Source of the DNA: an uncultured archaeon
GTDB taxonomy: Archaea; Nanobdellota; Nanobdellia; Woesearchaeales; UBA9642
Length of the DNA stretch: 64,000 nucleotides
NCBI GenBank assembly: GCA_963777125.1
Contig: CAVZPN010000024.1
Location: 6,596-70,595, forward strand
Reading direction: 5' to 3'
Shown: positions 44,720 through 64,000 of the stretch, in pieces
Numbering within the stretch: the first letter of the stretch is position 1
Layout of the letters: each line of letters opens with the position of its first letter
The notes under the pieces: generated by a model
The model's database searches: none
Told to the model about the DNA's origin: nothing
The model's input: the letters and a program-made list of their open reading frames with translations, nothing else
Position numbers and translations under genes: made by a program

Positions 44720-45679
44720 TTACTTCTCACTTGCACGTAAATCTTCAATTTTATTTGCAAGTATAATTCTTTCAAAAACAATAAAATAAGTGAACTGAAC
44801 AACAAGTGCTACTATTAAAGGTATTGCAGTATGTGCTGTAAAAAGCAACAAAACTATTGCAAGACCCGTCATTTCATTTTTTTGAGTAGAATATAATGAA
44901 TAATCAATTGCATCCATTTCTGATACAAACTGACGACTAACATAATATACTATTAAACCTAAAGTAAATATTACGGTAATATTTATCAAAAAGATATGTC
45001 TTATATTAATATCGCTGATATTTAGCAGTATTGATCTATTTAAGGATACAACAATAAAAATAATTAACCCTAATAATAAATTAGTAATTATTTTAGTATA
45101 ATTAAATAGGTAATTGATTACTTTAGTCTCAATATTTCTTGTTAAATAGGCTAAAATTATTGGAATTAAAATCAATATTAAAAGTGAACGTGCGAGTAAC
45201 ATAAATTTTATATTAGTACCAAAAAGAGCATATAATGTTGTTGGAATAATTATCAATGCAAGAAAATAACTTAAAATTAAAGCACTATCAGCAACTTTTA
45301 TATCACACTTTGCTAAATAACATAATGGAACTATAGCAATAGCAGGAGGAATTATTGCAAGTAAAACATAACCTAAAAAGTAATCTGAAGATAGTGGGAA
45401 AAATATTGAAGCAATAAGCAAATAAAATCCCGACAATAAAACATAATTTAATAGAATTGAAATAATAATACTTTTTCTGTCTGAAGAAATATTATTAAAA
45501 TTAGACTTTTTTTTAAAAAAAGGTCTTATTGATAAAAACATCACAACTCCAAGACTAATTTCAGTAATAGATTTAATAGAATTAACATTTATGATAAAAA
45601 TTAAAGGTAAAATTATAGCCATAATAAAAATAAGTTCAGTACTTTCAAACAAAGATTTAATGGAAAAATTAAAGACCAT
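44720..45679 (-). CDS. polytopic membrane protein (approximately 10 TM), possible transporter
   Basis: Highly hydrophobic 319 aa ORF. Divergently transcribed from the Cys-rich pilin-like gene. Confidence 0.45.
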   Translation of the reverse strand: MVFNFSIKSLFESTELIFIMAIILPLIFIINVNSIKSITEISLGVVMFLSIRPFFKKKSNFNNISSDRKSIIISILLNYVLLSGFYLLIASIFFPLSSDYFLGYVLLAIIPPAIAIVPLCYLAKCDIKVADSALILSYFLALIIIPTTLYALFGTNIKFMLLARSLLILILIPIILAYLTRNIETKVINYLFNYTKIITNLLLGLIIFIVVSLNRSILLNISDINIRHIFLINITVIFTLGLIVYYVSRQFVSEMDAIDYSLYSTQKNEMTGLAIVLLLFTAHTAIPLIVALVVQFTYFIVFERIILANKIEDLRASEK

Positions 45680-45892
45680 TAAATAATTAAGACATAACTA
45701 GTATATATTTGTTAGGTATTATAAAATATAGCTACTAAAACAAAAAATCGTAAGCAATAATAAATCAATTTTATTAACTAAAACAATAGTAATATTTATA
45801 AAGATGAATATCAAGTTTGATAATATTATCTCGAGTATTACAAAGAGTATTACAAGAGCAGAATTATCTACATAAAAAAAGGCATATTCAAG

Positions 45893-47578
45893 GTGAACAG
45901 CATGACTCAAAGAAGAGGACAAAGTGCAGGTAATGCAGCAGCATTTGTAGCAATATTAACCGTATTAATAATTGTATACATATTATTCTTACCTCCAGAT
46001 ATAAGAACTGAATTATTAGGAGATAAAAATGGAATATTAAATGATTCTAGTACTAGCACAAATACTGAAATACTATTAAAACAAAATATTGGCAAAGTCA
46101 CCTACATCAATACTGCTGAAAAAACATACGATTTACCAACTGTTCGAATATATTCTCCAACAAGCGGTCAAGTTCTAAAAAGTATTCCGAGTTCTAATAT
46201 AAGATACGCACTTTTTGATACTGAAAAATCTAAATATACTCTTGAATTAAATATTGATAAAAGATCCACAGAAAATCTTGTTTTAGTATTTAATGTCATG
46301 GAACATACAGGACCATTAATTATTGCTCTTAATGGTAATGAAATATTTAATGGCGAAGTAAAAACAACTAATCCTAAACCAATAAAACTTGATTCTGGAT
46401 CATTACTTGAAAACAATATTATAACATTTAGTGTCCCATCCCCTGGTTTAAAATTTTGGACTGCTAATAAATACACTTTAGAAAATATACAAATTACTGG
46501 CGATGTAACTGACTATAGTAATTCTATGGCCATACAAAATTTCGTTATAAGTCAAGTCGAGAAAGAAAATCTTGAAAGTATAAAATTATTTTTTTATCCT
46601 GATTGTGATTTATCTGAAGCTGGAAGCTTAAGAATTGATTTAAACGGAAGAGCAATATATAATAGTGTAGCAGATTGTGGAACAAGAACATTTGCAACAT
46701 TAAATACCAACGATATAATTTCAGGCAGTAATGAATTAAGATTTTATAGTGCTAAAGGATCATACATGTTAGATAATATGTATATCAAAACTACAATGAC
46801 AAAACCAGCATATAAAACATACTTCTTTGACTTAAAAGATGAATATTTTACATTTAAAACAAAAACTAGTATGTGTGGAGAATATGATGGCACATGTCCT
46901 ATTGGTTGTGATGAAACAACTGATGCTGATTGCTGCTTTGATAGAAAAGGATATTGGTGCGCTCTACCATTATCAAACGTTAATGATAGATGTAGATTCT
47001 ATGTAGCAAGCGATGATTGTTCATTATGTAAAACAGGATATTATGATGACAGCGGAGATGCTCCGACTACTTGTGAAAAAAAATGCGGAGATAACAACGA
47101 TAAAATCTGTGATAGTACTTGCTCGCAACCAAATAAATATTACGATAAAGATTGCTGCTTTGCACAAAGCAAGGATAATTTCTGGTGTAAAGAAACACCA
47201 ATAACAGGAATTGCAGACAAATGTAAACCAGCAATAAATCCTAGTGAATGTGACTTATGTCCATCAGGATACATCAATAAAGATGGCTCAGAACCTAAAT
47301 CATGTACTACTACAAACTTTAATATTCAAGATGAAGATTACTTATTTTCAAGCAATTATGAATTGAAAATCGTAGTTAAATTTGTTGATAGTACAACACG
47401 TAAACGTGTAGACTTTAATATCAATGGTCATACATTTAGAATTGATACAACAAATGTTGAATATACTAAATTAATCGCAGACTACGCTACAACTGGAACT
47501 AACAGCATTGAAATAAAACCAGTAGATAAAGATGTGGATATTTCAGAAGTTAGAGTAGAATTAAGAAGAGTTAAGTAA
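45893..47578 (+). CDS. pilin-like surface protein with class III (type IV prepilin-like) signal peptide and large Cys-rich ectodomain
   Basis: Likely true start is the ATG at 45902 (MTQRRGQ|SAGNAAAFVAILTVLIIVYILFL). This gives a short basic leader, a G at the cleavage position and a hydrophobic stretch. Internal duplicated Cys motifs (CSLCKTGYYDDSGDAPTTC / CDLCPSGYINKDGSEPKSC and DADCCFDRKGYWC / DKDCCFAQSKDNFWC). SD aggtga upstream. Confidence 0.55.
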   Translation: MNSMTQRRGQSAGNAAAFVAILTVLIIVYILFLPPDIRTELLGDKNGILNDSSTSTNTEILLKQNIGKVTYINTAEKTYDLPTVRIYSPTSGQVLKSIPSSNIRYALFDTEKSKYTLELNIDKRSTENLVLVFNVMEHTGPLIIALNGNEIFNGEVKTTNPKPIKLDSGSLLENNIITFSVPSPGLKFWTANKYTLENIQITGDVTDYSNSMAIQNFVISQVEKENLESIKLFFYPDCDLSEAGSLRIDLNGRAIYNSVADCGTRTFATLNTNDIISGSNELRFYSAKGSYMLDNMYIKTTMTKPAYKTYFFDLKDEYFTFKTKTSMCGEYDGTCPIGCDETTDADCCFDRKGYWCALPLSNVNDRCRFYVASDDCSLCKTGYYDDSGDAPTTCEKKCGDNNDKICDSTCSQPNKYYDKDCCFAQSKDNFWCKETPITGIADKCKPAINPSECDLCPSGYINKDGSEPKSCTTTNFNIQDEDYLFSSNYELKIVVKFVDSTTRKRVDFNINGHTFRIDTTNVEYTKLIADYATTGTNSIEIKPVDKDVDISEVRVELRRVK

Positions 47579-47625
47579 AATTCTCTAGTAATGAGGTGTA
47601 AGCCTAAGGTGAGGCTAAAGTAAAT

Positions 47626-49182
47626 ATGGGAACAGATAAAGCCGATAAAGATACTGAGAATTCTAAAGAAACTAATAAAGTAGCTAACGCTGGTAAAAAA
47701 ACTGCTGATGCAATAAACGCAGCTGGCGACGCTACATTAAGAAGTTTACGTAATGCTGGAAAAGCAATTGGAGGAAGTGGCGATTCATCATCTAGTTCTA
47801 AATCAAGTAGCGGATCTAATGGTGCAATCGCAATATTATTTGTAATTTCATTATTTCTTCACATTCTTGATTCTATTACTAAATTTGATAGACCAGGATT
47901 TATGTTATTTTATTATATTGGTCTAATAATATTTGCTTTTTTCTTTATTTTTAATATGAAACTTAACCAAGAGGGTGAAAAACAATTATTAGTAGTTATT
48001 TTCATATCTTATTTATTGCCTTTTGCAATAAAATATTTACCAGATAACAGATGGATACTTGCAATTTCAGGAATACTATTTTTAATTCCACTATTACCAC
48101 TATATATTGGACTACAGGCACCTCAAGATTCATTTTTATATAAATTTACAAAATGGTATATTGTCTTTTGGATAATCATACTAGCATTTTATCTTGTAGC
48201 AACATTTGCACCGACACAAGTAAGTACAGCACAACTTAAAGGAAATGTATGGACAGGAGCATCATATGTTTTGGGAAATACTGGAAAAACAATAAGTACT
48301 GTTACAACATCAGCAAATAATGCTCTAGCACGTGCTATTGCGCAAGCAACTGGAGAACCATATGATGGTCAAGAAGAAAGCAGAGTTGGAATTTATGTTG
48401 AAAATGTTAAAGCACTAGAATCAGGATATAATACTAACTCGGATGTTTTTGTTGAAGCTAAAATTAAAGCAATAAATCTAAAAGAACCAGTTAGAGTTAC
48501 AACAATATGTTATATTCCTGCAGTTCGTCAAGGAATTACAAATCCAGCTATCTTACCTGAAGTTAGTGCAGATTATGAAAATATTATTGATTGTGAACTA
48601 GGAAAATTAACTGCAGGAAATCATGAAGTAAAAGTACGTGCAATATTCGAGTTTAAAAGTACATCAGATATTGAATACACTTTTGTTAGCACTAATATTA
48701 AAACTGATCAATATACTAAATTAAATATTGATCCTACAACAATTGCAACATATACAGGTGGACCAGTAGCTGTTGGTTTACCATCCATAAAACAACCATT
48801 ACGAATAGAATTAGATCCTGATAAAACTGATGCAATGACTTATCCATTTGGAGTTAGCTTACAAAATAAATGGCCGCAAGGAAAAATTATGAAAGGATTA
48901 CAGTATAAATTAAATACTCCAAAAGAAGTAAAATTAGTTGAATGTAGTAGAACACCTACTGAAGTAAAAGAACCTGATGTTGATGGAAGAAACATATACA
49001 TATTTAATATTGATACTACCAATGCTCAAGATGTATTTGATGCAGTTAGATGTAGAATGCAAATAAGTGACGCGAAAGGATTATTAGGTAATGATCTAAA
49101 AAGCGTAAAAACATTTGCTGCAGAAGCAACATACGAGTACTCAGTTGAAAGCTCTGCAAGTATTAATATTATTAAAAGTTAG
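47626..49182 (+). CDS. polytopic membrane protein whose extracellular C-terminal domain belongs to the locus-specific paralog family
   Basis: Ser-rich N-terminus and approximately 6 TM helices. Ectodomain has the family N-terminal block (VGIYVEN...NTNSDVFVEAKIKAINLKEPV) and a GGPVAVGLPSIKQP block. Confidence 0.5.
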   Translation: MGTDKADKDTENSKETNKVANAGKKTADAINAAGDATLRSLRNAGKAIGGSGDSSSSSKSSSGSNGAIAILFVISLFLHILDSITKFDRPGFMLFYYIGLIIFAFFFIFNMKLNQEGEKQLLVVIFISYLLPFAIKYLPDNRWILAISGILFLIPLLPLYIGLQAPQDSFLYKFTKWYIVFWIIILAFYLVATFAPTQVSTAQLKGNVWTGASYVLGNTGKTISTVTTSANNALARAIAQATGEPYDGQEESRVGIYVENVKALESGYNTNSDVFVEAKIKAINLKEPVRVTTICYIPAVRQGITNPAILPEVSADYENIIDCELGKLTAGNHEVKVRAIFEFKSTSDIEYTFVSTNIKTDQYTKLNIDPTTIATYTGGPVAVGLPSIKQPLRIELDPDKTDAMTYPFGVSLQNKWPQGKIMKGLQYKLNTPKEVKLVECSRTPTEVKEPDVDGRNIYIFNIDTTNAQDVFDAVRCRMQISDAKGLLGNDLKSVKTFAAEATYEYSVESSASINIIKS

Positions 49183-49195
49183 AATAATTTAACCA

Positions 49196-50671
49196 TTGAA
49201 AGGAACAGTTATGAAAATAAGTATTAAAAAAAATAATAGCGTATTAATGAGTATATTTATATTGCTTACAGTAATATTTTTAACAGGATGTCAGGGTAGT
49301 GGTACTACGGAAAAATATCGTATTGGAACTGAAGGATTAAACTTAGAATTTGCATCATCTAATGTTAAAAGTGTATACGAAAACGAAAACTTCGGAACAT
49401 CAATAATTATCAAAAATATTGGTAGTTATGATATTTTAGATCAGAGTAATCCCGCAATATTAAAAGTTAGTTTTGATGATTATAGATTAAAATTTACTAA
49501 TTCTAAAGAAAATGTTAAAGAACAACAAATGTTAATTAATGGTAAAAGCAAATATTATCCTAAAGGAGATGAAATAAACTCAGAATACTATTTTGAATCA
49601 TTAAAACTCACTGATTTGAGAGAAAAATCAACTACTGAAATTAATTATAACTTATGTTATCCATATAATACTGAAATAACCACAGTTACATGTATTGATA
49701 CAAAACTTGCTAATAAAGATCAAACTGCAGCAGCATGTGCAAGTGAAACATATAGCGGATCTCAAGGTCAAGGAGCACCAATTGTTATAACTAAAATCGT
49801 ACCAGAAATCATGTTGCAAACAGAATATGTACGTCCACAATTTAAAATATATATTGAAAATAAGGGACCTGGATATGTTAATAACGCAAATAGTTGCAAT
49901 GTTGCAGATATTAATGATAGATCATCTTCAGGAAGAGTTAACGTATACGCTACTCTTTCAGGAACTCCTTTAGAATGTGGTCCTGATAATTCAGCATCAC
50001 TAAAATTAGTTGATTCTGAATCATTTATTAGATGCTATCTTCCAAATAAAGAAAAAGGATATTCACGATTAGAAAAAAATTATTTAACTCCATTAACAGT
50101 TAGTATTGATTATACCTATACTGTAATTACTAAACAAGAAATAGAAATTAAAAGAGATGACACAATAGAACGTGTTGTAACAAAAGACTGTGATTCATAT
50201 CAAATATTAAATGAAAATAAAACATGTGTTGATAAATGCTTATATTGTACCACTCATCCAAATGAAGATGTATGTAAAGTAAATTTACCTTTTGCAGAAT
50301 TTGAATTTAAAGAAGGTTTTTCATGTAGTTGTACTCTTGATCAATGTAATAGCAGAAATAAAACAGGAAATTGTATTAAAGGATATTGCCCTGGTAGTTT
50401 GTATTGCTGTAATACTCCTGTTGTTTGTGATAAATATCAAATAGAATTTAAGGGAAAATGTATCAATAAATGCGATTACTGCAGAGATAACTGGACTACA
50501 AACCCTAATGATCCTATTTGTCTCTCTAAATATGATTTTACTAACGCAAAATGTGATTCAATTACTGCGACAACATGTGATTCATTAGCAAAAAATAATT
50601 CCTGCATAAAAGGATTTTGTGGAGGAACAGATTCAAATAAATATTGTGTAAATACCTTTCCACAAGTATAG
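49196..50671 (+). CDS. lipobox-containing (LTGC) surface protein, paralog family member with Cys-rich C-terminal repeats
   Basis: Signal peptide ending LTGCQGSG. Family N-terminal block (GTEGLNLEFASSNVKSVYENENFGTSIIIKNIG). GSQGQGAPIVITKI. Repeated CIKG(Y/F)C(P/G)G Cys motifs. Confidence 0.55.
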   Translation: MKGTVMKISIKKNNSVLMSIFILLTVIFLTGCQGSGTTEKYRIGTEGLNLEFASSNVKSVYENENFGTSIIIKNIGSYDILDQSNPAILKVSFDDYRLKFTNSKENVKEQQMLINGKSKYYPKGDEINSEYYFESLKLTDLREKSTTEINYNLCYPYNTEITTVTCIDTKLANKDQTAAACASETYSGSQGQGAPIVITKIVPEIMLQTEYVRPQFKIYIENKGPGYVNNANSCNVADINDRSSSGRVNVYATLSGTPLECGPDNSASLKLVDSESFIRCYLPNKEKGYSRLEKNYLTPLTVSIDYTYTVITKQEIEIKRDDTIERVVTKDCDSYQILNENKTCVDKCLYCTTHPNEDVCKVNLPFAEFEFKEGFSCSCTLDQCNSRNKTGNCIKGYCPGSLYCCNTPVVCDKYQIEFKGKCINKCDYCRDNWTTNPNDPICLSKYDFTNAKCDSITATTCDSLAKNNSCIKGFCGGTDSNKYCVNTFPQV

Positions 50672-50744
50672 ATTAAAAAAGCAGAATATATTATACTTAA
50701 AAAAAACATAATCTTTATATATTATACACACAGGAGTTAATAAA

Positions 50745-52046
50745 ATGGTATTCAAACTAAACAATAAAATATTCTTAATAAGCACCTTAGTAATTGTTTT
50801 AATTTTAATTACTGGATGCGGAAGCACTACAAGTAATGTTCAAAAAAAATATTACACAGGATATAACAGTTTAGAAATGAATTTTTTAAGCGATAGTCCA
50901 CCATCAATATTTTATTATGACAGTGAAGCTCATGATAGAGGGGACTATGCTGCAAATACTATACCAATACTTGTTCAAATACAAAATAAAGGTTCATCTG
51001 ACAGTTATGGTGCATTATTTATACATGGATTTGATCCAAATATAGTTGCTATTCAAGGATATACTTCAGGATTTCCAGGATATAATGGTCCAATTAGAGG
51101 AGCTAGTTCTTTTGGCGGATGGTACGGTAACAATAATAATTATGCAATTAACGCATTAAATGTTCCTATAGGTACAAATAGCTATAGTTTAAATCTTCAA
51201 AAAGTCAATGGCCAAACAGGAATATCTTTTTCATCATTTGGATCTCGTTCACAATTATTCGGATCACTCGGATTCTCTAAGACATCACAAGTAGGAACTG
51301 GCTATACTGGAATAAATGTTGGTGTAGTACAAAATCGTGTTGGCTCAGTATTAAATCCTATAACTCGAGGAATGTTTAATCAATATGGTTGGAATGGTTG
51401 GTTAAAAGAACTTGAATTAGAGGGTAGAAATTCTGAAAATCCTGCAGGCGGAATGGATGTTATAGAATTCCCTGCAACAATATTAACACTTCCTCCATCA
51501 CTAGAAGAATTTAGACAAAGAGTAATGGTTACATCATGTTTTGATTACGCAACACATTCATCAACAATGGTATGTATTGATCCAGAACCATACTCTAATG
51601 TTAAAAAATCTTGTTTAATAAATACTGTAAGCGGAGGCGCAGGTCAAGGAGCTCCTGTTGCGGTTACAAGTATTGAACAAAGACCTGGCAAGGGCAGAAC
51701 TACATTTATTATAAATATTAGACACAATAAACAAGGAACATACGATGAATTATATGATTACTTTAATTTATACAAATGTGATCCAGCATCTGGCGCAACT
51801 GTAAAAACAAATGATAAAAACATTGTATATGTTGGATATGTGTACTTATCTCAATATGATATAACAATGGATTGTATGCCTGATCAAATGATTAGACTTG
51901 ATGATTCGGGTTCAGGTCAGATAACATGTTCAATAACTTTCCCAGAAGGAATGGCAAGTAGCGCATATCAAGCACCGCTTGAAGTAGAATTATGGTATGG
52001 TTATTCGAAAACAATATACAAAGATATGATTATTAGAAGAATATAA
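50745..52046 (+). CDS. lipobox-containing (ITGC) surface protein, paralog family member
   Basis: Signal peptide ending ITGCGSTT. Family N-terminal block (TGYNSLEMNFLSDSPPS...IPILVQIQNKG) and GGAGQGAPVAVTSIEQ. Confidence 0.55.
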   Translation: MVFKLNNKIFLISTLVIVLILITGCGSTTSNVQKKYYTGYNSLEMNFLSDSPPSIFYYDSEAHDRGDYAANTIPILVQIQNKGSSDSYGALFIHGFDPNIVAIQGYTSGFPGYNGPIRGASSFGGWYGNNNNYAINALNVPIGTNSYSLNLQKVNGQTGISFSSFGSRSQLFGSLGFSKTSQVGTGYTGINVGVVQNRVGSVLNPITRGMFNQYGWNGWLKELELEGRNSENPAGGMDVIEFPATILTLPPSLEEFRQRVMVTSCFDYATHSSTMVCIDPEPYSNVKKSCLINTVSGGAGQGAPVAVTSIEQRPGKGRTTFIINIRHNKQGTYDELYDYFNLYKCDPASGATVKTNDKNIVYVGYVYLSQYDITMDCMPDQMIRLDDSGSGQITCSITFPEGMASSAYQAPLEVELWYGYSKTIYKDMIIRRI

Positions 52047-52104
52047 ATTAGTATAATAATAGTATAAACAAATATAATAATTAAATAAACCTAAAGGTGA
52101 TAAA

Positions 52105-53088
52105 ATGAATAAAGGCATAGTATTGGTAATGATTTTGGCTATAAGTTTGTTTTTAACTGGTTGCGGTAATACGGGCACAACAACCGGTAAAACATTTATT
52201 GGTGGAACAGAAGGATTAAAAACAAGTTTTCTTTCAGGAAATCCTCCAGCTGTAACAACAGACGGCGGAACTACACCATTTAGTATCGGCATAAAAATGG
52301 AAAATATGGGAGAAAGTAGTATTAAATCTAGCGACGGATATGTAGAAATTTGGGGAGCAGATGCTTCAACATATAGTTCTAAATATCCTGACTTTAAAAA
52401 AACATTTTCACAAGAAGCAACTTTTGGAGAAGAATTAAGTGGTGCTAAAATGAATTATGGTAACCAACTACACGGCGGAACCAGCACTCTTACATTTGAT
52501 GACTTAAAATATGTTCCTATAATCACTGGTGATAATCGTGAACAATTAATTAGAGCAAATGTTTGTTACAAATACTCAACACAAGCAACAGCACAAATTT
52601 GTGTAAAAAATAATATAGAACAAGCACTTAGTGGAAAAGAAATATGTACTGTTGAAGAAGAGAAAAATCCTCAAAATAGCGGCGCACCAATACATATTAC
52701 ATCATTAAAAGAATTCTATGGGGGTAATGGAAAAATAGGAATAACATTAACAATTGCTCATGTAGGAAATGGAGATGCATTTTTCAAAGATGATCAAATA
52801 AAATGCGTTGATAGCTTAAGCAACGGCGATAAAGGAAAAGTCAGAATAAAATTCAAAGACATACAATTAGGTGGAAAGAGTATTCCTGTAGTATGCCCTG
52901 GCGTTAGCGAAGATGGATATGTTAGATTGTATAGCGAAGGTGCAGGAAAAGAATCAACTAATGTTCAATGTACAATCGATGTTTCTGGCAATAAAAATGT
53001 TGTAGAGGTACCAATAGAAGCAGAATTAAGCTACGTATACTTACAACACATAGAAACTGGCTTAACAATACGACATGTAGTTCAATAA
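52105..53088 (+). CDS. lipobox-containing (LTGC) surface protein, paralog family member
   Basis: Signal peptide ending LTGCGNTG. Family N-terminal block (GGTEGLKTSFLSGNPPAV...FSIGIKMENMG) and NSGAPIHITSLKE. Confidence 0.55.
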   Translation: MNKGIVLVMILAISLFLTGCGNTGTTTGKTFIGGTEGLKTSFLSGNPPAVTTDGGTTPFSIGIKMENMGESSIKSSDGYVEIWGADASTYSSKYPDFKKTFSQEATFGEELSGAKMNYGNQLHGGTSTLTFDDLKYVPIITGDNREQLIRANVCYKYSTQATAQICVKNNIEQALSGKEICTVEEEKNPQNSGAPIHITSLKEFYGGNGKIGITLTIAHVGNGDAFFKDDQIKCVDSLSNGDKGKVRIKFKDIQLGGKSIPVVCPGVSEDGYVRLYSEGAGKESTNVQCTIDVSGNKNVVEVPIEAELSYVYLQHIETGLTIRHVVQ

Positions 53089-53255
53089 ATAATTGAACTA
53101 TAATTTTTTAATTTACTTTTTTATTTTCTTACTTCTCATTCTAAATATTATAAAAATTATTCAAACAAAAATTAACACTATTACAACTAAATACCTAACT
53201 TCTTAAAATATGCTGACGTTAAATATTATTAAAATAGACGTAAATTAAAACAAAG

Positions 53256-53273
53256 AATCCGGCATATCGGATT
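53256..53273. terminator. hairpin AATCCG-GCATAT-CGGATT between convergent genes
   Basis: 6-bp perfect stem in an otherwise AT-only intergenic region between 52105..53088 (+) and 53355..54575 (-). Confidence 0.25.
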
Positions 53274-53354
53274 AATCTCTAATATAATAAATCATAAGTA
53301 GGAGTAAATAGAAAATAGTTATTAAAATATTTGATTAAATAAAATCATTCTTAC

Positions 53355-54633: not shown

Positions 54634-55425
54634 TTATGTACTTATGGATGGTCTTGATGACTTTGCAACTGATAAAAACATAAATTGTACAAATCCAATC
54701 ATCACTGCAAGTACAACGAGTATAGTCATACTAATCTTTAAACCCATAAATGAAGCAGCAATTACTAGCATAGTTATTCCGAGTGATGGTACAATTATGG
54801 AAATAGTCATATAAAACATTGCTAAAGGACTAAGTTTTTTACCATATTCTGAAACAGCAATAGCTTGTTCTCGAACAATTTGTTCAGCCACTGAATTTAA
54901 TGCTCCTGCAACTTCAGTTCCTGTTTGCAAAGAATTCATTACTTGCCATAATAATCTTCGTAAATTTGGTGAAGGCGAAGTATTTAATGTATCACTTATG
55001 GCATCTTCCATTGTGGTCCCAAAATAAACTTTATTCAATATTTCACCAAAATAATATCCTATATATTCATAATTTTTTTCCATATCCTCAAATATTTTAT
55101 GTATTGGAACACCAGATTCTATTCCAATAATTAAAAATCGTGCAGCAAAAATTATTTCTTCATCTATTTTCTTTTTTATCTTTTCTATTTTTACATCTAC
55201 ATATTTTATAAAATACATAAATAAAAAAGGAAGACTAAATGGAATAATTAATATTGCCAAAAATGACGAAGTAAAAAAAAAGAACATAAAAAATAAACCT
55301 ATAGAAATCATCACTATTGTTGCAACTGTAGATTTAATATACTCTTCAGGCTCAGCAAGTATACCTGCTTGTCTAAGTTTTAGTCTTAACTCAGGCATAC
55401 GTTTGGAAAGGTAGGAATATAGCAT
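54634..55425 (-). CDS. type II secretion system F-domain membrane protein (TadB/FlaJ N-half-like)
   Basis: T2SSF-like segment (GVPIHKIFEDMEKNYEYIGYYFGEILNKVYFGTTMEDAISDTL) plus 3 TM helices. A 58 nt gap with stops in all frames separates it from the next gene. Confidence 0.6.
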   Translation of the reverse strand: MLYSYLSKRMPELRLKLRQAGILAEPEEYIKSTVATIVMISIGLFFMFFFFTSSFLAILIIPFSLPFLFMYFIKYVDVKIEKIKKKIDEEIIFAARFLIIGIESGVPIHKIFEDMEKNYEYIGYYFGEILNKVYFGTTMEDAISDTLNTSPSPNLRRLLWQVMNSLQTGTEVAGALNSVAEQIVREQAIAVSEYGKKLSPLAMFYMTISIIVPSLGITMLVIAASFMGLKISMTILVVLAVMIGFVQFMFLSVAKSSRPSIST

Positions 55426-55541: not shown

Positions 55542-57839
55542 TTATTTAGTTTTTTTACTTAGTTTATTCGATTTAGATGAGTCTAATTTTGCTTTAGTTT
55601 TAGAAGACCCTTTTGATTTGTTTTCAGTTGATTTTGTATTGGGCTTTTTAGAGGAACTAGATTTATTCAAATTATCATCTGGAGTAGTAGAATTAACAGC
55701 AGCATTAACTGCGCTTTTTGAATCGGAAGCATTAACAGCAGCAGCACTTGAATCTACAGTTGGAATTTTTAATGCAGAATTAGATTCTGGAACTACAGGT
55801 AATTCTATTTTTAGTTGTGATGCTAGAGGGAAATCTTTATTTGAATTAACATATTTCATAAGATTTGGCTTTGCAGTATAATATTCTGCAACAATTCTTC
55901 CTACACCATCAACATCATCAATATTTTTCGAAACTAAATATTTTAACACCTTCACCTTATCATCTAATTCTTTATTTATTTCAGCCGTAGTCATACCAGT
56001 AAACAATGCAATATTATCAAATAATGATTTAGATTTACTTATTTGCACAAGAACATCTTTATTAATATCATACTGCATTATTACATTAGCTTCACCAGTA
56101 GATAATATTTCAGCAATTTGGAACGTTCTTCTTTTACCGCTTCTTCTATTTCTAAATTGTACTATTATTAAGGATATTGCTGGCAACATAATTTTTGGAA
56201 CGTCAAGCGGAGCATTTGTCAATCTCTCAACTGTCTCTTTAGCGCTATTTGCGTGAAATGTTGCATATACTGAGTGTCCAGTGTGTATTGCTTCGAATAA
56301 TGTTTCTGTTTCTCTCTTTCTTCTAACTTCTCCTACAAGAATTCTATCTGGTCTCATTCTTAAACTATTAACGAGTAAATCTCCCATATTTATTTCTCCT
56401 TTTCCTTCAGCATTTGGAAGAGTAGTATTTAATGGAACCCAATGTAAAAACTTTGGAAGAACAATTTCTCTTGTATCTTCAATACTTAAAATTCTTTGAT
56501 TTGGCGGGAAAAAATTAGCGAAAACATTTAATGCTGAAGTCTTACCTGAAGCTGTTCCTCCTGCAATTAAAGCAGATAATTCAAATTGTATTGCTGTCCA
56601 TATTAATGCTGCAGCTTCAGCTGAAATTGTTGCTGTTCTAATAAATTTAGTTATAGTCCATGGATCCTTAGAAAACTTTCTAATAGTCATAGTATTACCA
56701 TTTGTTGAAACAGGACTTAAAGTAGCATTTACTCTATCTCCAGTTCCTAAATTTGCATCTAAAAGAGGAGTTAGAACAGTAATTTGTCTTCCGACTCTTC
56801 TTCCAATAATACTTGCATAATGTCTTATTTGCTCTTCACTTTTCAGATATACATTTGTTCTAAGCCAATTGTATTTTTTATGATATACCCATGCTGGCTC
56901 AGATGATTGATTTATTACTACTTCTTCAAGTAATTCATCATTCATTAATAATTCTAAATTACCAAGACCTAAACTATGCATTTTCAAATAAGATCTTAAA
57001 AATCCTACTGTATCAATATCGCTGTCAGGAAAATATTTACCGATAAGTATATCTATTAATTGATTAAATTTATCTTCCACCATATCTGTTTTTTTAACAT
57101 TACCTATTTCTTCTGCACCCAAACTTACCCTTCTTATCAATTCTAAACGTACTTTTTCAAGAATCATTTCGGTAGTTTTACTTATTGCGGAAATTTGTAA
57201 ATTATATATAGGAACAAATTCACCAATCTTTTTAACAACAGTCACAGTTATGGGAATACCTTCTGATTTAAATTCATAAGTATCGAGTAATTTATCCTCA
57301 TTACTCTCAATATCTTCAGAATCATTAGAAACTTTAGATAACTTTTTTGTATCTACTAAAATATTTTTAGCGGATTTAGCAGACTTATTACTTTTAGAAA
57401 GTTTAACTAAATTATCAACAGAATTAGTACTCTCACCAGCAGACTTAGTTGCAGTTAAATCTATAGACTTATCTATAATTTTGGCAGATTTATTTACAGC
57501 AGAATCTTTTGATAGATCCTCTTTTTGTATATCCTTAATTATGGATGATTCTTCTAACTCTTTTTTATATTTTTTAGAATTTTCTAAAGTCTTATCAAAA
57601 AGAGAATGAATTGCGTTAGAAACAACATTAACGGGATTTTTATCATTAGAAATAATTTCTGTTTTAGAAGAATTTACAGATTTAACATCATCAGCAGGCA
57701 TATTAAGAACATCTTTTTTAGAAGTAAGAGCAGTAACTGGCTCTTCTTTAGTATTCTTCTCTTTAGTAGCATGCTCTTTAACATGCGCTTTACTAGTTGA
57801 TGATTTTTTACTCATTATTTTCAATAGTCTGTTTCCCAC
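55542..57839 (-). CDS. FlaI/TadA/VirB11-family secretion ATPase with long K/S-rich N- and C-terminal low-complexity extensions
   Basis: Walker A GGTASGKTS, RPDRILVGEVR (Asp box region), ATFHANS His box. Approximately 200 aa N-terminal and 110 aa C-terminal K/S/N-rich tails. Confidence 0.85.
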   Translation of the reverse strand: MGNRLLKIMSKKSSTSKAHVKEHATKEKNTKEEPVTALTSKKDVLNMPADDVKSVNSSKTEIISNDKNPVNVVSNAIHSLFDKTLENSKKYKKELEESSIIKDIQKEDLSKDSAVNKSAKIIDKSIDLTATKSAGESTNSVDNLVKLSKSNKSAKSAKNILVDTKKLSKVSNDSEDIESNEDKLLDTYEFKSEGIPITVTVVKKIGEFVPIYNLQISAISKTTEMILEKVRLELIRRVSLGAEEIGNVKKTDMVEDKFNQLIDILIGKYFPDSDIDTVGFLRSYLKMHSLGLGNLELLMNDELLEEVVINQSSEPAWVYHKKYNWLRTNVYLKSEEQIRHYASIIGRRVGRQITVLTPLLDANLGTGDRVNATLSPVSTNGNTMTIRKFSKDPWTITKFIRTATISAEAAALIWTAIQFELSALIAGGTASGKTSALNVFANFFPPNQRILSIEDTREIVLPKFLHWVPLNTTLPNAEGKGEINMGDLLVNSLRMRPDRILVGEVRRKRETETLFEAIHTGHSVYATFHANSAKETVERLTNAPLDVPKIMLPAISLIIVQFRNRRSGKRRTFQIAEILSTGEANVIMQYDINKDVLVQISKSKSLFDNIALFTGMTTAEINKELDDKVKVLKYLVSKNIDDVDGVGRIVAEYYTAKPNLMKYVNSNKDFPLASQLKIELPVVPESNSALKIPTVDSSAAAVNASDSKSAVNAAVNSTTPDDNLNKSSSSKKPNTKSTENKSKGSSKTKAKLDSSKSNKLSKKTK

Positions 57840-57931
57840 TTATATCCCCACACCACTCTTAACAGTCTAAATTCTAACAGGTCAATATCCTCTCAATCAT
57901 CTCAATGTAGCAATAATACCGCATAAACATA

Positions 57932-57990
57932 CAATATATACTTAATATATATTTAATATATACTTAATATATACTTAAATAAATATTACA
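57932..57990. repeat. approximately 11-nt tandem repeat (ATATACTTAAT)x3-4 upstream of the FlaI-like ATPase operon
   Basis: caatatatacttaatatatatttaatatatacttaatatatacttaaataaat. Confidence 0.4.
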
Positions 57991-59151
57991 TTACTTAGTT
58001 TTTTTAAACATTGAAATTAATTGTGATATCTTTCCTTTAATAGACATCTTTTTATTCTCAAATTCTTTAATTTTTGATTCAATATCTTTTAATTCTGATT
58101 TAATATGCACACTTGAAGTTAATAGAGTAAATGAAATAACTTTTGCCTTTAAAGCTTCGAGTTCTTTTGCTAAAGATAACTTATCACTTTCAATTTCTGT
58201 AATTAATTTTTCAATAGTAATGTTTTTGGAAAAAAAGCCTTCAAAACCCTTATGTACTTTATCACTTAATGCTGAATGTGCATTAATACTTTCTTTTTGC
58301 GAACTTAATTCTTTCTCTATTTGTGCTTGAGTTTTAAAAATCTTATCTTCGTTTGATTTTAAAGCAAGTATTTTTTTTGTTAATAAACTACTTTTTTTAT
58401 CTGAAATTTCCTGATCTAAATTATCTAAAGAAAGTTTATATTTGAGAATAGTTTTATTAGCATCATCAAATTTATTTTTATAATCTAAGATAACTTTATC
58501 GATATTTTTCAAAGATTCTTTCAAAGAAGTAACTGTTCGTTCATAATCATTACGTAATTTTACTAATTCTTCAATTTTTTTACCATATTGATCAACATTA
58601 GTTCTTTCTTTTGCAATTACATTATGTAATTCATCATATTTTTGTGATTCTAATTTTAATTTGTCTTGCGCTTCTTTAACAAAAGAATCATAATCAATTC
58701 TCTGTTTATCAATATCTTTGCCTAAATTCTTTCTTAAAGAATCATATCTATCGAGTTCAGTTAATTGAGTTTTTACTAAATTAATTTCCTCTTTAATATT
58801 GCTTTGAATTTTTGCAAATTCCGCTCTAATAGTCTCAAAATCGCTAGTTTCTTCTTGTAATGCGCTTAATGCAACATCGATTTTTCTTGCTAAAGCATCT
58901 TTTTCTGATGTTACTTCTTTAATATTTGTTAATACGTCTTCTTTGCCTATTTTTCGTTCAGAAATAAATATTTTAGAAAGATGATACTCAAGACTTACAA
59001 GTCCTTCCTCTTCTAGAAATTCAGCCCATTCTTGCACAACATTCTTACCTACACCTAAAGTTTTTGCAGCTGAATCTAGATCTAAGCGCTTTTTTTCGGA
59101 TACAAGTTCAACTAACTTATCCACACCAGTTGTAATGCTTCTTCTCACCAT
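57991..59151 (-). CDS. coiled-coil protein with N-terminal winged-helix-like domain (pilus-locus associated)
   Basis: N-terminal LDLDSAAKTLGVGKNVVQEWAEFLEEEGLVSLEY is HTH-like. Followed by approximately 300 aa of heptad-rich sequence. Confidence 0.45.
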   Translation of the reverse strand: MVRRSITTGVDKLVELVSEKKRLDLDSAAKTLGVGKNVVQEWAEFLEEEGLVSLEYHLSKIFISERKIGKEDVLTNIKEVTSEKDALARKIDVALSALQEETSDFETIRAEFAKIQSNIKEEINLVKTQLTELDRYDSLRKNLGKDIDKQRIDYDSFVKEAQDKLKLESQKYDELHNVIAKERTNVDQYGKKIEELVKLRNDYERTVTSLKESLKNIDKVILDYKNKFDDANKTILKYKLSLDNLDQEISDKKSSLLTKKILALKSNEDKIFKTQAQIEKELSSQKESINAHSALSDKVHKGFEGFFSKNITIEKLITEIESDKLSLAKELEALKAKVISFTLLTSSVHIKSELKDIESKIKEFENKKMSIKGKISQLISMFKKTK

Positions 59152-59250
59152 CTTTATAAACTAAATTCACCTTTACTTATATAATTTTGTTACAACTATT
59201 AAATTAACAAGCACAATGATGCTTAAATTAATACTTCAATCTACCTTAAG

Positions 59251-60279
59251 TTAAGGACATGCTGTTTCATTTATATTATCTAAACCATAAAATGTTTTTC
59301 TATCTCTTGGCAATATTAAAGGATACAAAGGATTATGAGTTAAATTAATACATACTTTATTAACATTTAAATCGTTAAAATAAATATAATCTACCTTTAT
59401 TCGTTTAGGATATGATGTTAATTCGGGATTCAATAAAATCCTATCATCTACAATACTTTCTATACCGTAAGGATCTGAAGTAGTTTTTCCTTCAAAACGC
59501 ATAATAAAAGTAGGAGCATTACTAGATTCAATATAATACGAACTATTAATATGATTTTGTAAAGTCATAAGACTAATATCATTAAACAAAATACTAGAAT
59601 TAATAGTAGAATTTAATCTTCGGATAGTATTTGGAACTTTATTAAATGTATTTTTACTATATAAGGGATCTCTTAAATTATCAATAGGAACGGTTGTTAC
59701 GTATTCTTTATTAATATTCCATGATGCAGTATGTTTATTATCTATAAGAGTTATATTCAAAGCCATATATACATCAATATTCCATGGATCAGATTGCACT
59801 AAATTAATATTTGAAACATTAATGTTTAAATCCATACCAGTATTACTAGATATAGCATCTACTTTAGAAACATAATCATAAAAAGTCGAATTAGCCATTA
59901 TGGGCGAGTTAGTTCCATTTATTGTACCATAATAAAACGTTTCTCTAAAAGACTCATTAATATTTGTTAAATAAACCCCGCTCGTAGTTACATAATCCTC
60001 GAGAGCCAATAAAGTCCTAAACGCAGAGATATATGTTGCACGGTGAATATCATTATTTAAATTTTTAGTAAAATCATTCATTGATCTGATCCTTATTTGT
60101 TGTAATAATTCTTGATCTTGATATCTGTAATTACTAGCAGCAAAAAATATACTAAGTAAAATAGCAACCATAAGCGTTGTAACTAAAACATAAGTAAATC
60201 CTTTACGACTTTTTCTAGAAGTAATGATTAAATTAGATAGTATATTCTTTAAATTCTTAAGTAGCATAATCATTGCCAT
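59251..60279 (-). CDS. pilin-like protein with class III signal peptide
   Basis: N-terminus ...SRKSRKG|FTYVLVTTLMVAILLSIFFAA, a basic leader with G-F then a hydrophobic helix, like prepilins. Start overlaps the end of the giant upstream gene by 10 nt. Confidence 0.5.
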   Translation of the reverse strand: MAMIMLLKNLKNILSNLIITSRKSRKGFTYVLVTTLMVAILLSIFFAASNYRYQDQELLQQIRIRSMNDFTKNLNNDIHRATYISAFRTLLALEDYVTTSGVYLTNINESFRETFYYGTINGTNSPIMANSTFYDYVSKVDAISSNTGMDLNINVSNINLVQSDPWNIDVYMALNITLIDNKHTASWNINKEYVTTVPIDNLRDPLYSKNTFNKVPNTIRRLNSTINSSILFNDISLMTLQNHINSSYYIESSNAPTFIMRFEGKTTSDPYGIESIVDDRILLNPELTSYPKRIKVDYIYFNDLNVNKVCINLTHNPLYPLILPRDRKTFYGLDNINETACP

Positions 60280-63200
60280 ACCTCAAGATTCAATACAGAT
60301 GGTCCCCACATGTAAGGTAAACCTCCGACAGTTAAAACAACGACTTCTAAATCTTCGGCAGCTAATGAAACAATTATTTTACCGTTACTATCAATATCTA
60401 ATTGTCTAAAAATATTATATACCGCTAAATCATATGCATCATCAAAATCATAATCAGGATTAAATGTTTGTGAAGAATTAGTATAATTACATACTTTCGA
60501 ACCAGCATAATTTGAAGGAATAAATATAGTCGTATTATCATTATTCTCCGATTCAACTATCCATTTACAACCAACAACTTTAGGTAAAATCTCAGATCTT
60601 GCAATAGTACTTGGAATTAAAGCAGTATAAATAAAAGAATTATTTACAGAACAATTAGTATTAACTGAAGGATCATCACCAGTAGCCAATATTAATTGAT
60701 GAGTTCCTGAATTATTTAAATAACTAGGAGGTATTTGAATAATAAAAGGATCACCTAATCTAACATAATTGCTATTATATTTAGAAAGATTATATACTTC
60801 TACATCATCAATACTTAAATAATTAGTCCAATGTTGACCTGAGTAGGAAGTTATTTTTGCATCTATAATTCGCATACCTGAAGGCAAATTTATAGTTGGA
60901 CTACAATCATTAAATTTAGAACTTTCAAAAGTAATTTCGATTTCACCAGGAACAGGAGGAGATATTAAAGAAGTATAATTATAAGCAATATAACTATCAG
61001 GATATAGCGTTGATTCAGCAAATGCAGAACCAGAAAATATCATTGCCTGAGATTCGCGAGTAGAAAAACCAGAAACTATAGATGAAGCAATATCTTGGTA
61101 TATATCTGCGATGGCAGAAACATCTGTAGTAGTATAAAAATGAGTAGAATTATCACATGCTGCACTAAGATTTAATGTTTTAGTGCCATTAATACTTGAA
61201 GAAGTACCAAAAGCCACAGAATAAATACTTATATTACGACTATTATGTAAATAGCATGATAAATTGACAACCTGAGCAAAGGCAGTTTCATTACCATCTT
61301 CGCTTCCTCCTAAATCAGCAATAGTTGGACACATAACATTAAACACTCCAGTTGTAGTATTAGGACAACATGCTCTTCCAGAACAATCATTACAATAATT
61401 TAAACTTCCAACACCATCCCATGCGCGTACACAACTATTTGCATCACCATCACTCATAATTAATATTGCGCTCTGTCTTTCAGTCATATTTGCGCGTAAT
61501 TCCACATCAATAAATCCTGAAAGATTATCATTGTTTTTTAATTTTACAGCTAAAATATTATTTCCTTCAACAAAATTAGACATTGGAACAGAAACATTCC
61601 TATTCCAATAAGATCTAACATGATTAGTCGTATCATTATCAATTAAATTCCCATTTAAATATACTTCAGTATTATTGTCAGAAGCGACATATAGACGTGC
61701 ATCAGAAAATCTTGTAAGATTAGTCATTGAAAAAGTATTTCTATAATAAGTATTTCCAACATGATTTACAAATACTATCTGCACATTATCAAAATAAAAA
61801 ATACCTGATAAAGTAGCCTTATCACGACTAAGTTTCCCTCCAAAATCTAAATAATAACTGCCCGACTGAGTTAATATAGAACTTATATCTTGACTAAACG
61901 CTAAATCATCTGCGTTTGTATCAGGATCGTCGGTTGTCCAAACTTCGTAAGTTGAATCACTTGCCGTATGTCCGCTATCTTTTTGAGAACCTAGATAAGT
62001 AATATTTCCGGAAGTATTACTTATTCTTGCTTTAATCCAAACCTGATCAGCAGTTTTGTAACTTCCTGAATTTATCCACGAATAATCAAAAGATACAACA
62101 GCATAACCCCCATTTGAAATAATCGCAAGCATTTCATCAGTTACATTAAATTGAATACCATAAGAACCATCAGAGGTTTGTCTACTCGCAACACCACCAA
62201 TATTTATTCTTAATTGACCTCCAGATATTCCTGCAATAGTTACAGCAGTACTATTTCCACTATATGCACCTGTTTTATTATCCCAACCATCATTTCCACT
62301 AACATTTAATCCATAAGTGTTTGCAGTAGAATTTAATCTTCCTGAAGTAAAATCATTTGGTGACCCTAACACATCATTAACAGAAGCACTATAATATTCC
62401 CATAAATCTGCTGAAATATTATTTGAGTTAATAACTGCACCTAATCCAGACACTTTATATCCTATAGGAACATTTCCCTCTAACCAAGAAGAATCATCAT
62501 ATGAAATAATGTTCCAATTAGAATCAGGTAAATTAAATTGATGAGTAATATCGTATTTCCATAAATCTTTATGTAATTGAGGAGCTGAAAGATTAGATAA
62601 TAAATTATATGCATCAGTAATACCGCAAGAAATACAAGTAGAACCAGACGCTGAATAAAGATCTATTTCATCGCCTAATAAATTTTGATCATTAGTTAGA
62701 TTATACTTTCGTTTAGTATCATCAGCATAAGAAACTAAACCTATTCTATTTAAAGTAGTATTTAATAATACTTCATCAATAAAAATCTTATCAACACATC
62801 TAGCAACAGATATTCTACTTGTTGATAAACTATACAATGAAGGATCAGAGCAATCAAAAATATCATCACCATCATTATCACTATCAAACTCCCAATCCAT
62901 ACTACCACTTACATCTGTTGTTATAACTATGTCTCCAAATCCTTCACCATTACCAACTCTTATGGTTTGAAGAGTAATATTTTCAAACCCTATTCTTAGC
63001 GGAATTGTCGAACTATTAAAAGAAGAATAATCTATTATTGAAAAATTTGCATCAGTCAAATTCATTCTAACTTCACCATTAGAATAATTATCTAAAAATA
63101 CTGTTTTATTACCTAACGTCATAAAAAAAGTATTTTGTACAGTACTAGTATTTATCCTATAATGTAAATATATATTTAAACTATTTAATTCTCCAGGAAC

Positions 63201-64000
63201 GTATATTGAATCATAAAGGTTTACTGCACCAGCAATTCCTGGCAAATCATTAGTTTTATGAGTACTATAAGGATCATCTTGAAAATTATTTGTTTCATAA
63301 TCTATTTTTATATATCCTCCAGAGATATATGCTTTACTAAGATCTGTAAATGAAAAAGTAAAATTATTTTTGCCTTCAATTAAAGAAGCATTACAACCAG
63401 TTATTAACCAATAATCAGAAGTCATATTAATAGTAGATGCAGTAAATATGGAAACTCCTGTAGAACTATTACACGAAATATTGTTAATAGTTAAATGAAA
63501 TACTACACCCTCAGCGACATCTAATTCTAAAATCATTTGTAATACACGAATATTATTTAAATCAAAAGTTTTAGTGATATTACCCTGTCCGACAAACCCG
63601 CCAAAATAAGCATAGGATGAAGTTTTTTTATCACTTATTTTTCGTAAATAAGAAGTTCCTGACGAACCAAGTAATGGTTTTCCCTCTTCGATACCAGATA
63701 TCATTCTACTTGCAGAAATGGAATTTATTTTTAAAGCTAAATCTTGCAATAATATAGTGCTATTACCAATAGTAGTTTTAATACCATAATTATTAGGGAT
63801 AGAATTATTAATAACGTCTTCAAGCAATAATTGCGCTTTATCTTTCCTATTTGTCGCCCAATATATACCTATCTGCTCTAAAACAGTTTTATTAGTATCA
63901 GTAATATTTTGTGAATTTGTCTCATTAATAATAAAAGTGCTATTGAGCTCATTAATTCTTAATTCTGAAATTATAGATAAAATATCTTGTGATACAAAAG
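60270..64000 (-). CDS. giant extracellular vWA-domain protein (putative adhesin/tip protein), 5' end beyond window
   Basis: Frame is open from 60270 to 64000. I translated the 63828..64000 extension by hand and found no stop, so the protein is longer than 1,240 aa. MIDAS motif ITTDVSGSMDWE. Very many N-x-S/T sequons. Cys pairs. Confidence 0.6.
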   Translation of the reverse strand, partial: FVSQDILSIISELRINELNSTFIINETNSQNITDTNKTVLEQIGIYWATNRKDKAQLLLEDVINNSIPNNYGIKTTIGNSTILLQDLALKINSISASRMISGIEEGKPLLGSSGTSYLRKISDKKTSSYAYFGGFVGQGNITKTFDLNNIRVLQMILELDVAEGVVFHLTINNISCNSSTGVSIFTASTINMTSDYWLITGCNASLIEGKNNFTFSFTDLSKAYISGGYIKIDYETNNFQDDPYSTHKTNDLPGIAGAVNLYDSIYVPGELNSLNIYLHYRINTSTVQNTFFMTLGNKTVFLDNYSNGEVRMNLTDANFSIIDYSSFNSSTIPLRIGFENITLQTIRVGNGEGFGDIVITTDVSGSMDWEFDSDNDGDDIFDCSDPSLYSLSTSRISVARCVDKIFIDEVLLNTTLNRIGLVSYADDTKRKYNLTNDQNLLGDEIDLYSASGSTCISCGITDAYNLLSNLSAPQLHKDLWKYDITHQFNLPDSNWNIISYDDSSWLEGNVPIGYKVSGLGAVINSNNISADLWEYYSASVNDVLGSPNDFTSGRLNSTANTYGLNVSGNDGWDNKTGAYSGNSTAVTIAGISGGQLRINIGGVASRQTSDGSYGIQFNVTDEMLAIISNGGYAVVSFDYSWINSGSYKTADQVWIKARISNTSGNITYLGSQKDSGHTASDSTYEVWTTDDPDTNADDLAFSQDISSILTQSGSYYLDFGGKLSRDKATLSGIFYFDNVQIVFVNHVGNTYYRNTFSMTNLTRFSDARLYVASDNNTEVYLNGNLIDNDTTNHVRSYWNRNVSVPMSNFVEGNNILAVKLKNNDNLSGFIDVELRANMTERQSAILIMSDGDANSCVRAWDGVGSLNYCNDCSGRACCPNTTTGVFNVMCPTIADLGGSEDGNETAFAQVVNLSCYLHNSRNISIYSVAFGTSSSINGTKTLNLSAACDNSTHFYTTTDVSAIADIYQDIASSIVSGFSTRESQAMIFSGSAFAESTLYPDSYIAYNYTSLISPPVPGEIEITFESSKFNDCSPTINLPSGMRIIDAKITSYSGQHWTNYLSIDDVEVYNLSKYNSNYVRLGDPFIIQIPPSYLNNSGTHQLILATGDDPSVNTNCSVNNSFIYTALIPSTIARSEILPKVVGCKWIVESENNDNTTIFIPSNYAGSKVCNYTNSSQTFNPDYDFDDAYDLAVYNIFRQLDIDSNGKIIVSLAAEDLEVVVLTVGGLPYMWGPSVLNLEVWQ

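Follow-up and report, generated by a model that had tools for sequence, protein, structure and literature searches.

Type IV filament loci with two platform genes have already been catalogued in DPANN archaea (System 1, 4A), as have PilY-like adhesins (4A/B) and partner proteins of coiled-coil, SMC-like or CBS type (4F) (PMC4858521; bioRxiv 10.64898/2026.04.22.720090). In bacteria, placing a vWA domain (von Willebrand factor A) on a tip minor pilin is an established theme, represented by TadG/CpaL, PilY1, and S. sanguinis PilB (PMC12607857, PMC12075869). The locus analyzed here occupies positions 44720-64000 of a 64,000-nucleotide stretch of contig CAVZPN010000024.1 from an uncultured archaeon (the whole stretch is called the window below) and combines a set of type IV pilus genes with five genes on the opposite strand, g1-g5, for predicted surface proteins. 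An earlier sequence-only reading took these 19 kb for a single surface apparatus with noncanonical cargo, in a gene combination that it did not recognize as a described system. The literature above speaks against the last two descriptions, as a vWA-fused tip minor pilin is known from bacteria and comparable DPANN filament loci are on record.

We consider it likely that the region holds two independent units lying tail-to-tail, a DPANN type IV adhesion pilus operon on the - strand and a separate envelope module on the + strand. The gene content of the - strand operon points to a DPANN type IV pilus that is elaborate but otherwise of the ordinary archaeal kind and, by analogy, probably adhesive. 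The whole window is AT-rich (GC content of ~0.25-0.31), and its nearest relatives in public genomes are metagenome-assembled genomes labelled Woesearchaeota or Nanoarchaeia; these labels place it in a DPANN archaeon, and the vWA tip-adhesin architecture agrees with the earlier proposal of an attachment apparatus.

Gene order and conservation of the two blocks

Apart from the gene at 44720-45679, the 12 substantial open reading frames (ORFs) of the region form two blocks, one on the + strand (45893-53088) and one on the - strand that runs from 53355 past the window end. These blocks had been described as divergent. They are convergent, with the stop of g5 at 53088, that of the TadC-like gene at 53355, and a T-rich spacer between them. 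Features are listed below with the evidence for each in brackets (TM, transmembrane; CBM, carbohydrate-binding module; HTH, helix-turn-helix; MIDAS, metal ion-dependent adhesion site; aa, amino acids).

44720..45679, - strand: transporter of the SBF (bile acid:Na+ symporter) family (PF01758)
45893..47578, + strand: g1, membrane-anchored protein with CBM-like domains (N-terminal motif, model)
47626..49182, + strand: g2, five-TM protein with an ectodomain (TM scan, orthologue domains)
49196..50671, + strand: g3, predicted lipobox lipoprotein paralogue with a Cys-rich C-terminal extension (lipobox, hhalign)
50745..52046, + strand: g4, predicted lipobox lipoprotein paralogue (lipobox, hhalign)
52105..53088, + strand: g5, predicted lipobox lipoprotein in which six Cys are invariant and two domains are beta-sandwiches (lipobox, model)
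53089..53354, no strand: convergent AT-rich spacer with T-runs between the transcription units (sequence read)
53355..54575, - strand: TadC-like platform protein, last gene of the pilus operon (PF00482)
54634..55425, - strand: TadB-like platform protein (PF00482)
55542..57839, - strand: type IV filament assembly ATPase of the FlaI/TadA/VirB11 superfamily (PF00437)
57991..59151, - strand: coiled-coil accessory protein, cytoplasmic, with an HTH-like N-terminus (coiled-coil/SMC-type matches)
59251..60279, - strand: 342-aa pilin-like protein (class-III-like N-terminus)
60270..64000, - strand: giant vWA protein, C-terminal 1243 aa of 1287 aa (MIDAS motifs, Mfa5 profile match)

In distant relatives the gene order is FmrO, pelota, g1-g5, and the replication factor C (RFC) gene, and the surrounding 10 kb hold neither T2SSE nor T2SSF genes. 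Such pilus-free g1-g5 loci were recognized from gene tables (L045, L046, L048, L049, and L050) and by tblastn (L063, L066, L067, L069, L070, L072, and L074). The pilus operon lay between g5 and RFC only in 13 loci of one subclade, whose g5 is at least 52% identical to the window copy, and in L003, L005, and L051 the RFC gene is found just past the pilins. Because RFC stands beyond the pilins in these loci and closes the pilus-free order elsewhere, the operon appears to have been inserted between g5 and RFC in a single subclade. A search for the same neighborhood in other genomes, as the sequence-only reading had suggested, gave a divided answer: the pilus operon recurs in L001-L005, and in compact form in L007, and the distant loci keep g1-g5 alone between pelota and RFC, which argues against one 19-kb apparatus.

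The pilus operon

The Tad/FlaI-type machinery with a split platform that had been proposed earlier was recovered in Pfam as one T2SSE ATPase and two genes with a single T2SSF domain each. The ATPase (55542-57839, - strand) matched PF00437 with 106 bits (E 1.8e-30; cut-off of 24.9); it has long Lys/Ser-rich tails at both termini, and its catalytic boxes (Walker A, Asp-box, Walker B, and His-box) are intact in alignment. The closest PDB entries are A. fulgidus GspE (afGspE; 2OAP, 222 bits), FlaI (177 bits), and CpaF (160 bits), and the best NCBIfam match is the FlaI model, at 250 bits against an equivalog cut-off of 550. The top-scoring relatives outside DPANN are from Thermococcales (310 bits) and Methanobacteriales (255-279 bits), whereas a neighbor-joining (NJ) tree places the protein in a DPANN-specific clade nearer afGspE and FlaI and not with those two groups; as tree and similarity scores conflict, assignment to a published clade was dropped. 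The TadB-like (54634-55425, - strand; E 1.1e-13, 51.7 bits) and TadC-like (53355-54575, - strand; E 2.3e-11, 44.2 bits) proteins each match PF00482 once (cut-off of 25.2), and with one T2SSF domain in each of two genes the platform is split as in TadB/TadC. The TadC-like protein also matches ArlJ models of NCBIfam weakly (41 bits against cut-offs of 400-550). As a separate observation, ATPase ORFs of Thermococcus and Pyrohabitans (L013 1401-4655; L015 9725-12979) are ~1084 aa long, about double the usual length, and may contain an intein or an extra domain.

The operon was followed past position 64000 on L051, a contig of the same genome found by exact match to the coiled-coil protein. Upstream of the giant gene, this contig encodes three small pilins of 148, 139, and 176 aa, and past them come a divergently oriented gene for a 162-aa pilin, a GNAT gene, and the RFC small subunit gene. 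The 162-aa protein, whose N-terminus reads MKKKGQ and then AAMEFLMTYGWAIVVV, is PilA-like and the candidate major pilin. A strict FlaFind-like class III pattern is present in this protein (KGQAAM) and in two minor pilins (RAQVSM and KAQIAV), and the L051 pilins show weak matches to PF04021. Two pilin-like genes had been placed next to the machinery; the 342-aa gene stands, and it is the only small pilin-like gene within the window, the others lying past 64000.

The order giant, 342-aa protein, coiled-coil protein, ATPase, TadB, and TadC is shared by L001-L005, at 35-83% identity. A compact version of the operon was found in Candidatus Aenigmarchaeum subterraneum (L007 6371-13953). It encodes three small pilins, a pilin of 145 aa, a protein of 294 aa, an HTH-like coiled-coil protein, and the ATPase with TadB and TadC, and its major pilin shares the GQxAMEYLMTYGWAI N-terminus. 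Loci from Woese-, Aenigm- and Altiarchaeota have a PilA-like major pilin with a highly conserved N-terminus beside the operon. Besides pilin genes, the operon contains only those for the coiled-coil protein, the ATPase, and the two platform proteins. Some contigs with this archaeal locus are filed under bacterial names (Alphaproteobacteria, Allocoleopsis, and Bacteroidota; L001 = DASPMU010000053.1, P0017, and P0084), probably because DPANN contigs were mis-binned.

Read upstream, the ORF from 60270 reaches the window end without an in-frame stop and runs off the window. Its full product in L051 is 1287 aa, in keeping with the earlier description of a vWA protein of more than 1,240 aa, and the N-terminus, outside the window, is pilin-like (MKTIKNNKA, then FFYTMDALLASVLLL) and fits a loose class III pattern only. 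The single-sequence Pfam vWA score is 18.7 bits, below the cut-off of 23.8. The MIDAS elements TDVSGSM, GGTCICCGI, and SDGDAN (DxSGS...T...D type) are kept in six aligned homologues, and the profile of this alignment matches Mfa5, a fimbrial tip subunit of P. gingivalis, in its vWA domain (E 4.5e-8). In this genome, the vWA domain is interrupted by an insertion of ~390 aa that is missing from the aligned orthologues of 897-920 aa (L003 4910-7603; L004 65-2761; L005 2455-5217), and two giant paralogues in L009 carry other insertions at the same site, which these alignments mark as a putative hot spot of adhesin diversification. A conserved C-terminal region of ~350 aa belongs to no known family. 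The protein has 52 N-X-S/T sequons against 24 expected (z = 7), and z ranges from 3.7 to 9.3 among giant homologues.

By analogy, we infer that the giant is a modular minor pilin serving as a tip adhesin. The fourth pilin of L007, of 145 aa, aligns to the giant's N-terminus (hhalign E 6.6e-5) and has no vWA ectodomain, so that the ectodomain seems to have been added to a minor pilin that already existed and the compact L007 form looks like the ancestral state of the giant adhesin.

The start of the 342-aa protein gene overlaps the stop of the giant gene by 10 nucleotides and its orthologues adjoin the giant gene in L001-L005; this protein is a conserved partner of the giant adhesin. Its N-terminus (SRKG, then FTYVLVTTLMVAILL) is class-III-like, on the loose pattern only, and nothing in Pfam or NCBIfam matched it. 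Sequon enrichment is weak in the window copy (z 1.3) and ranges from z 2.1 to 4.9 in the orthologues. At the same position, L007 has the 294-aa gene, with a similar MKG plus hydrophobic N-terminus, the likeness being one of position and N-terminus alone.

Directly upstream of the ATPase gene in L001-L005 and L007 lie orthologues of the coiled-coil protein encoded at 57991-59151, in which an HTH-like N-terminal segment of 60 aa is followed by ~320 aa of coiled coil. It had been read as a coiled-coil winged-helix protein, and its matches are only of coiled-coil and SMC type plus a weak HTH at residues 11-53 (LrpA, E 0.024), which upholds the coiled coil and lends the HTH part weak support. Candidate orthologues from Micrarchaeota and L011 retrieved by jackhmmer were dropped, as they proved to be CBS-domain or TM proteins. 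In Micrarchaeota L008 (3971-4642) and the unclassified archaeal L020 (6570-7250), the gene directly upstream of the pilus ATPase encodes a CBS-domain protein in place of the coiled-coil one.

The g1-g5 module and flanking genes

None of g1-g5 has a Pfam or NCBIfam match, and homologues of the + strand block are all annotated as hypothetical, without a Pfam domain. The product of g1, whose true start is likely the ATG at 45902, has 22 Cys and a conserved N-terminal [KR]GQ with a hydrophobic stretch. Its layout combines one TM helix and a flexible linker with CBM-like jelly-roll/beta-sandwich domains and a Cys-rich module. In the model the TM helix is short, an LFLPP break is conserved, the linker is disordered, and there is no pilin alpha1 helix packed on a head domain. 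The Cys-rich, pilin-like protein previously seen here thus keeps its Cys and its N-terminus, and the model is not pilin-like. The 518-aa g2 protein has a disordered cytoplasmic N-terminus, five predicted TM helices, and an ectodomain of ~320 aa (TM scan). Two of its orthologues, each from a distant lineage, carry recognizable domains in the extracytoplasmic part, namely Glucosaminidase (PF01832, E 5e-15) in L045 (6190-8121) and SLT (PF01464, E 6e-7) in L046 (4471-7911). These archaea lack murein, and the presence of peptidoglycan-cleaving domains on these two proteins suggests action on bacterial cell walls.

The products of g3, g4, and g5 are mutual paralogues (hhalign probability of 99.8-100). 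Four paralogous surface proteins had been counted, the fourth being g2; profile-profile comparison of g2 with g3-g5 gave only E 0.1-0.3, leaving three. Lipoboxes (pattern [LVI][ASTVI][GAS]C after an N-terminal hydrophobic stretch) occur in the window copies of g3 (LTGC), g4 (ITGC), and g5 (LTGC); a lipobox-type Cys after a hydrophobic stretch is present in most of the 18 g3-g5 proteins from six genomes, and the lipobox Cys (C20) is invariant in 60 homologous sequences. These motifs mark g3-g5 as predicted lipoproteins, and the view that the paralogues are pilus cargo is at odds with their lipoboxes, which are not pilin signals. The g3 protein has 29 Cys. The lipoprotein family comprises 3167 representative clusters at E <= 1e-3.

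Sequons are depleted in the + strand proteins of the window (6 against 26.5 expected). Over six genomes (the window, L045, L046, L048, L049, and L050), g1-g5 have 32 sequons against 111 expected, and all 12 g4 and g5 proteins are free of them; the bias is opposite in the neighboring pilus adhesins, where sequons are enriched 2- to 3.6-fold. The heavy N-glycosylation potential once ascribed to the locus therefore applies to the giant, weakly to the 342-aa protein, and not to the + strand. Judging from the models, g1-g5 probably form a constitutive cell-surface complex that binds glycans, and they are probably a core surface structure of Woesearchaeota. This module, which occurs across Woesearchaeota, is the more novel object of the two units, with a function that we infer weakly.

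The - strand gene at 44720-45679 had been offered as a candidate for the missing prepilin peptidase or a transporter. Its only Pfam match is SBF (PF01758, E 9.8e-13, 48.6 bits against a cut-off of 24.3), which removes it as a peptidase candidate and agrees with the second alternative. The gene is missing between pelota and g1 in L053, L061, and L065, where pelota abuts g1, and it is a lineage-specific transporter insertion that is part of neither module. The upstream neighborhood (PheRS, TrmB, FmrO, and pelota) is housekeeping and conserved. The pelota gene (43450-44544, - strand) is apparently split by a frameshift: the eRF1_1 and eRF1_2 domains lie in the ORF at 43831-44544 and an eRF1_3-like C-terminus runs on in another frame to ~43450, while in its orthologues pelota occupies one ORF of 346-353 aa. 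The split may reflect a sequencing error, a pseudogene, or recoding. A transglutaminase-core protein is encoded at 12817-13695 (- strand; PF01841, E 2.5e-6), 40 kb from the pilus operon; clade 1 pilus loci have been reported to be linked to surface transglutaminase-family peptidases (PMC4858521). An Rfam search of the window found no RNA family.

Assembly, alternative readings, and comparison with known systems

By the established type IV filament mechanism, the ATPase (of hexameric type) would power the platform, which would pull class-III-processed pilins out of the membrane and polymerize them. Gene order and N-termini suggest that the filament would consist of the PilA-like 162-aa major pilin and that the giant minor pilin, together with the three small ones and the 342-aa pilin-like protein, would prime its assembly. 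The giant's heavily N-glycosylated ectodomain, with its MIDAS-bearing vWA domain, would sit at the tip as an adhesin, and the HTH-like coiled-coil protein would partner the ATPase in the cytoplasm. The gene for the prepilin peptidase would have to lie elsewhere.

Several observations weigh against this picture of a self-contained adhesion pilus beside an unrelated envelope module. Its adhesive role and the tip location of the giant are argued purely from analogy, and the function proposed for g1-g5 comes from similarity of fold and from domains fused to their relatives. Neither the 342-aa protein nor the giant nor the 176-aa pilin fits the strict FlaFind-type pattern, and no A24 prepilin peptidase was found among the window's polytopic ORFs and other scanned ORFs of at least 100 aa. 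The two units stay adjacent in 13 of 13 subclade loci, and some functional coupling of the pilus operon and g1-g5 may exist. A conserved [KR]GQ precedes the TM helix of g1, which could be a class-III substrate dependent on the pilus machinery or its peptidase.

The last points are also what speaks for one integrated apparatus at 44720-64000, in which the type IV machinery would assemble or display the + strand proteins as cargo: adjacency is kept in the window and the 13 related loci, the g1 N-terminus resembles a class III signal, and all products are predicted to be extracytoplasmic. We nevertheless hold this to be improbable, since the units are convergent and g1-g5 are kept without pilus genes in at least 11 distant loci, g3-g5 have lipoboxes and not pilin signals, the g1 model lacks the pilin alpha1-on-head fold, and the two blocks have opposite sequon biases. 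It is quite improbable, too, that the machinery builds a short pseudopilus or a bindosome-like array presenting binding proteins, or serves DNA uptake or secretion. Archaeal type IV machineries have been proposed to display class-III substrate-binding proteins (bioRxiv 10.64898/2026.04.22.720090), and many minor pilins here face one major pilin gene; against this, loci from Woese-, Aenigm- and Altiarchaeota have a dedicated PilA-like major pilin next to the operon, there is no linked ABC transporter or ComEC-type gene, and the vWA tip-adhesin architecture fits adhesive pili (PMC12607857, PMC12075869).

A motility archaellum, intact or degenerate, has next to no chance of being the correct reading of the - strand operon. 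FlaI is the best NCBIfam match of the ATPase and the TadC-like protein weakly matches ArlJ models, but both scores are far below the equivalog cut-offs, which places them outside ArlI and ArlJ, and the platform is in two genes. Pfam scans covered most window ORFs of at least 100 aa, together with the polytopic ORFs, and seven continuation ORFs on L051; among these we found no archaellin (ArlB/FlaB), ArlF/ArlG, ArlH (KaiC-like), ArlC/D/E, or ArlX, and the filament genes are those for PilA-like pilins and a vWA adhesin. The sequence-only reading had likewise concluded that the locus is not an archaellum.

A more ambitious view of the envelope module, unlikely in our judgment although not far-fetched, would make g1-g5 an undescribed, Woesearchaeota-wide envelope machine that contacts, and in some lineages cleaves, the wall polysaccharide of a partner cell, with the adjacent pilus giving long-range attachment. 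Its parts would be a class-III-like anchored CBM-like protein, a five-TM protein that in some lineages bears a muramidase or lytic-transglycosylase domain, and three disulfide-rich, sequon-free lipoprotein paralogues. If true, g1-g5 would be a core host-interaction organelle of these DPANN archaea.

Pili have been seen on DPANN archaea by microscopy. With our preferred reading of an adhesion pilus operon next to a separate module, the locus becomes a concrete, conserved candidate for DPANN attachment to partner cells, through a pilus with a putative giant glycosylated vWA tip minor pilin. The Aenigmarchaeota short form would illustrate that archaeal adhesins are added onto minor pilins, as in bacteria. 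Splitting off g1-g5 prevents a false "super-locus" annotation and exposes a large unannotated family, and this lipoprotein/envelope family is worth structural and proteomic study.

Among described systems, g1-g5 match none; the nearest analogies are archaeal S-layer-associated/lipoprotein surface complexes and BcsB-type CBM carriers. For the pilus operon, the bacterial Tad pilus shares the single ATPase with no retraction ATPase gene in the locus, the platform split into two one-domain T2SSF proteins, and the small minor pilins with a large vWA minor pilin proposed at the tip (PMC12607857, PMC12075869). It differs in that the locus here has no Pfam TadE/TadG/Flp match and no secretin, TadZ, or TadV genes, its major pilin is 162 aa with a globular part as opposed to the ~50-70 aa of Flp, and its ATPase scores 310 bits to the archaeal Thermococcus type against 160 to CpaF. 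The Epd-type pilus ("clade 1" of Makarova 2016, "System 1" of Sivabalasarma & Albers 2026) likewise has two platform genes together with large adhesins and numerous minor pilins; DPANN are reported to have System 1, and the top non-DPANN ATPase scores are to Thermococcales and Methanobacteriales. However, the major pilin here is not of the ~70-aa EpdE type, neither an EppA nine-TM peptidase nor DUF2341 adhesins were detected here, and the NJ tree separates the ATPases.

Subsystems 4A and 4F offer further likenesses. Some DPANN 4A loci have two platform genes and a PilY-like adhesin. Loci of 4F have an intracellular coiled-coil/SMC-like/CBS partner, a PilA-family major pilin, and an adhesin-like protein, their ATPase clade also occurs in nanoarchaea, and here an SMC-like coiled-coil protein precedes the ATPase, with a CBS protein in L008 and L020; the comparison with 4A and 4F is one of resemblance (coiled-coil partner and vWA adhesin), not of arCOG-defined accessory sets. 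No published description joins a pilin-vWA giant to a split platform and a coiled-coil partner. With PilY1/PilC, S. sanguinis PilB, and P. gingivalis Mfa5, the giant shares a MIDAS-bearing vWA domain on a filament tip subunit, its own place at the tip being assigned by analogy; it differs from them as a 1287-aa archaeal protein with a class-III-like N-terminus and a vWA domain interrupted by ~390 aa.

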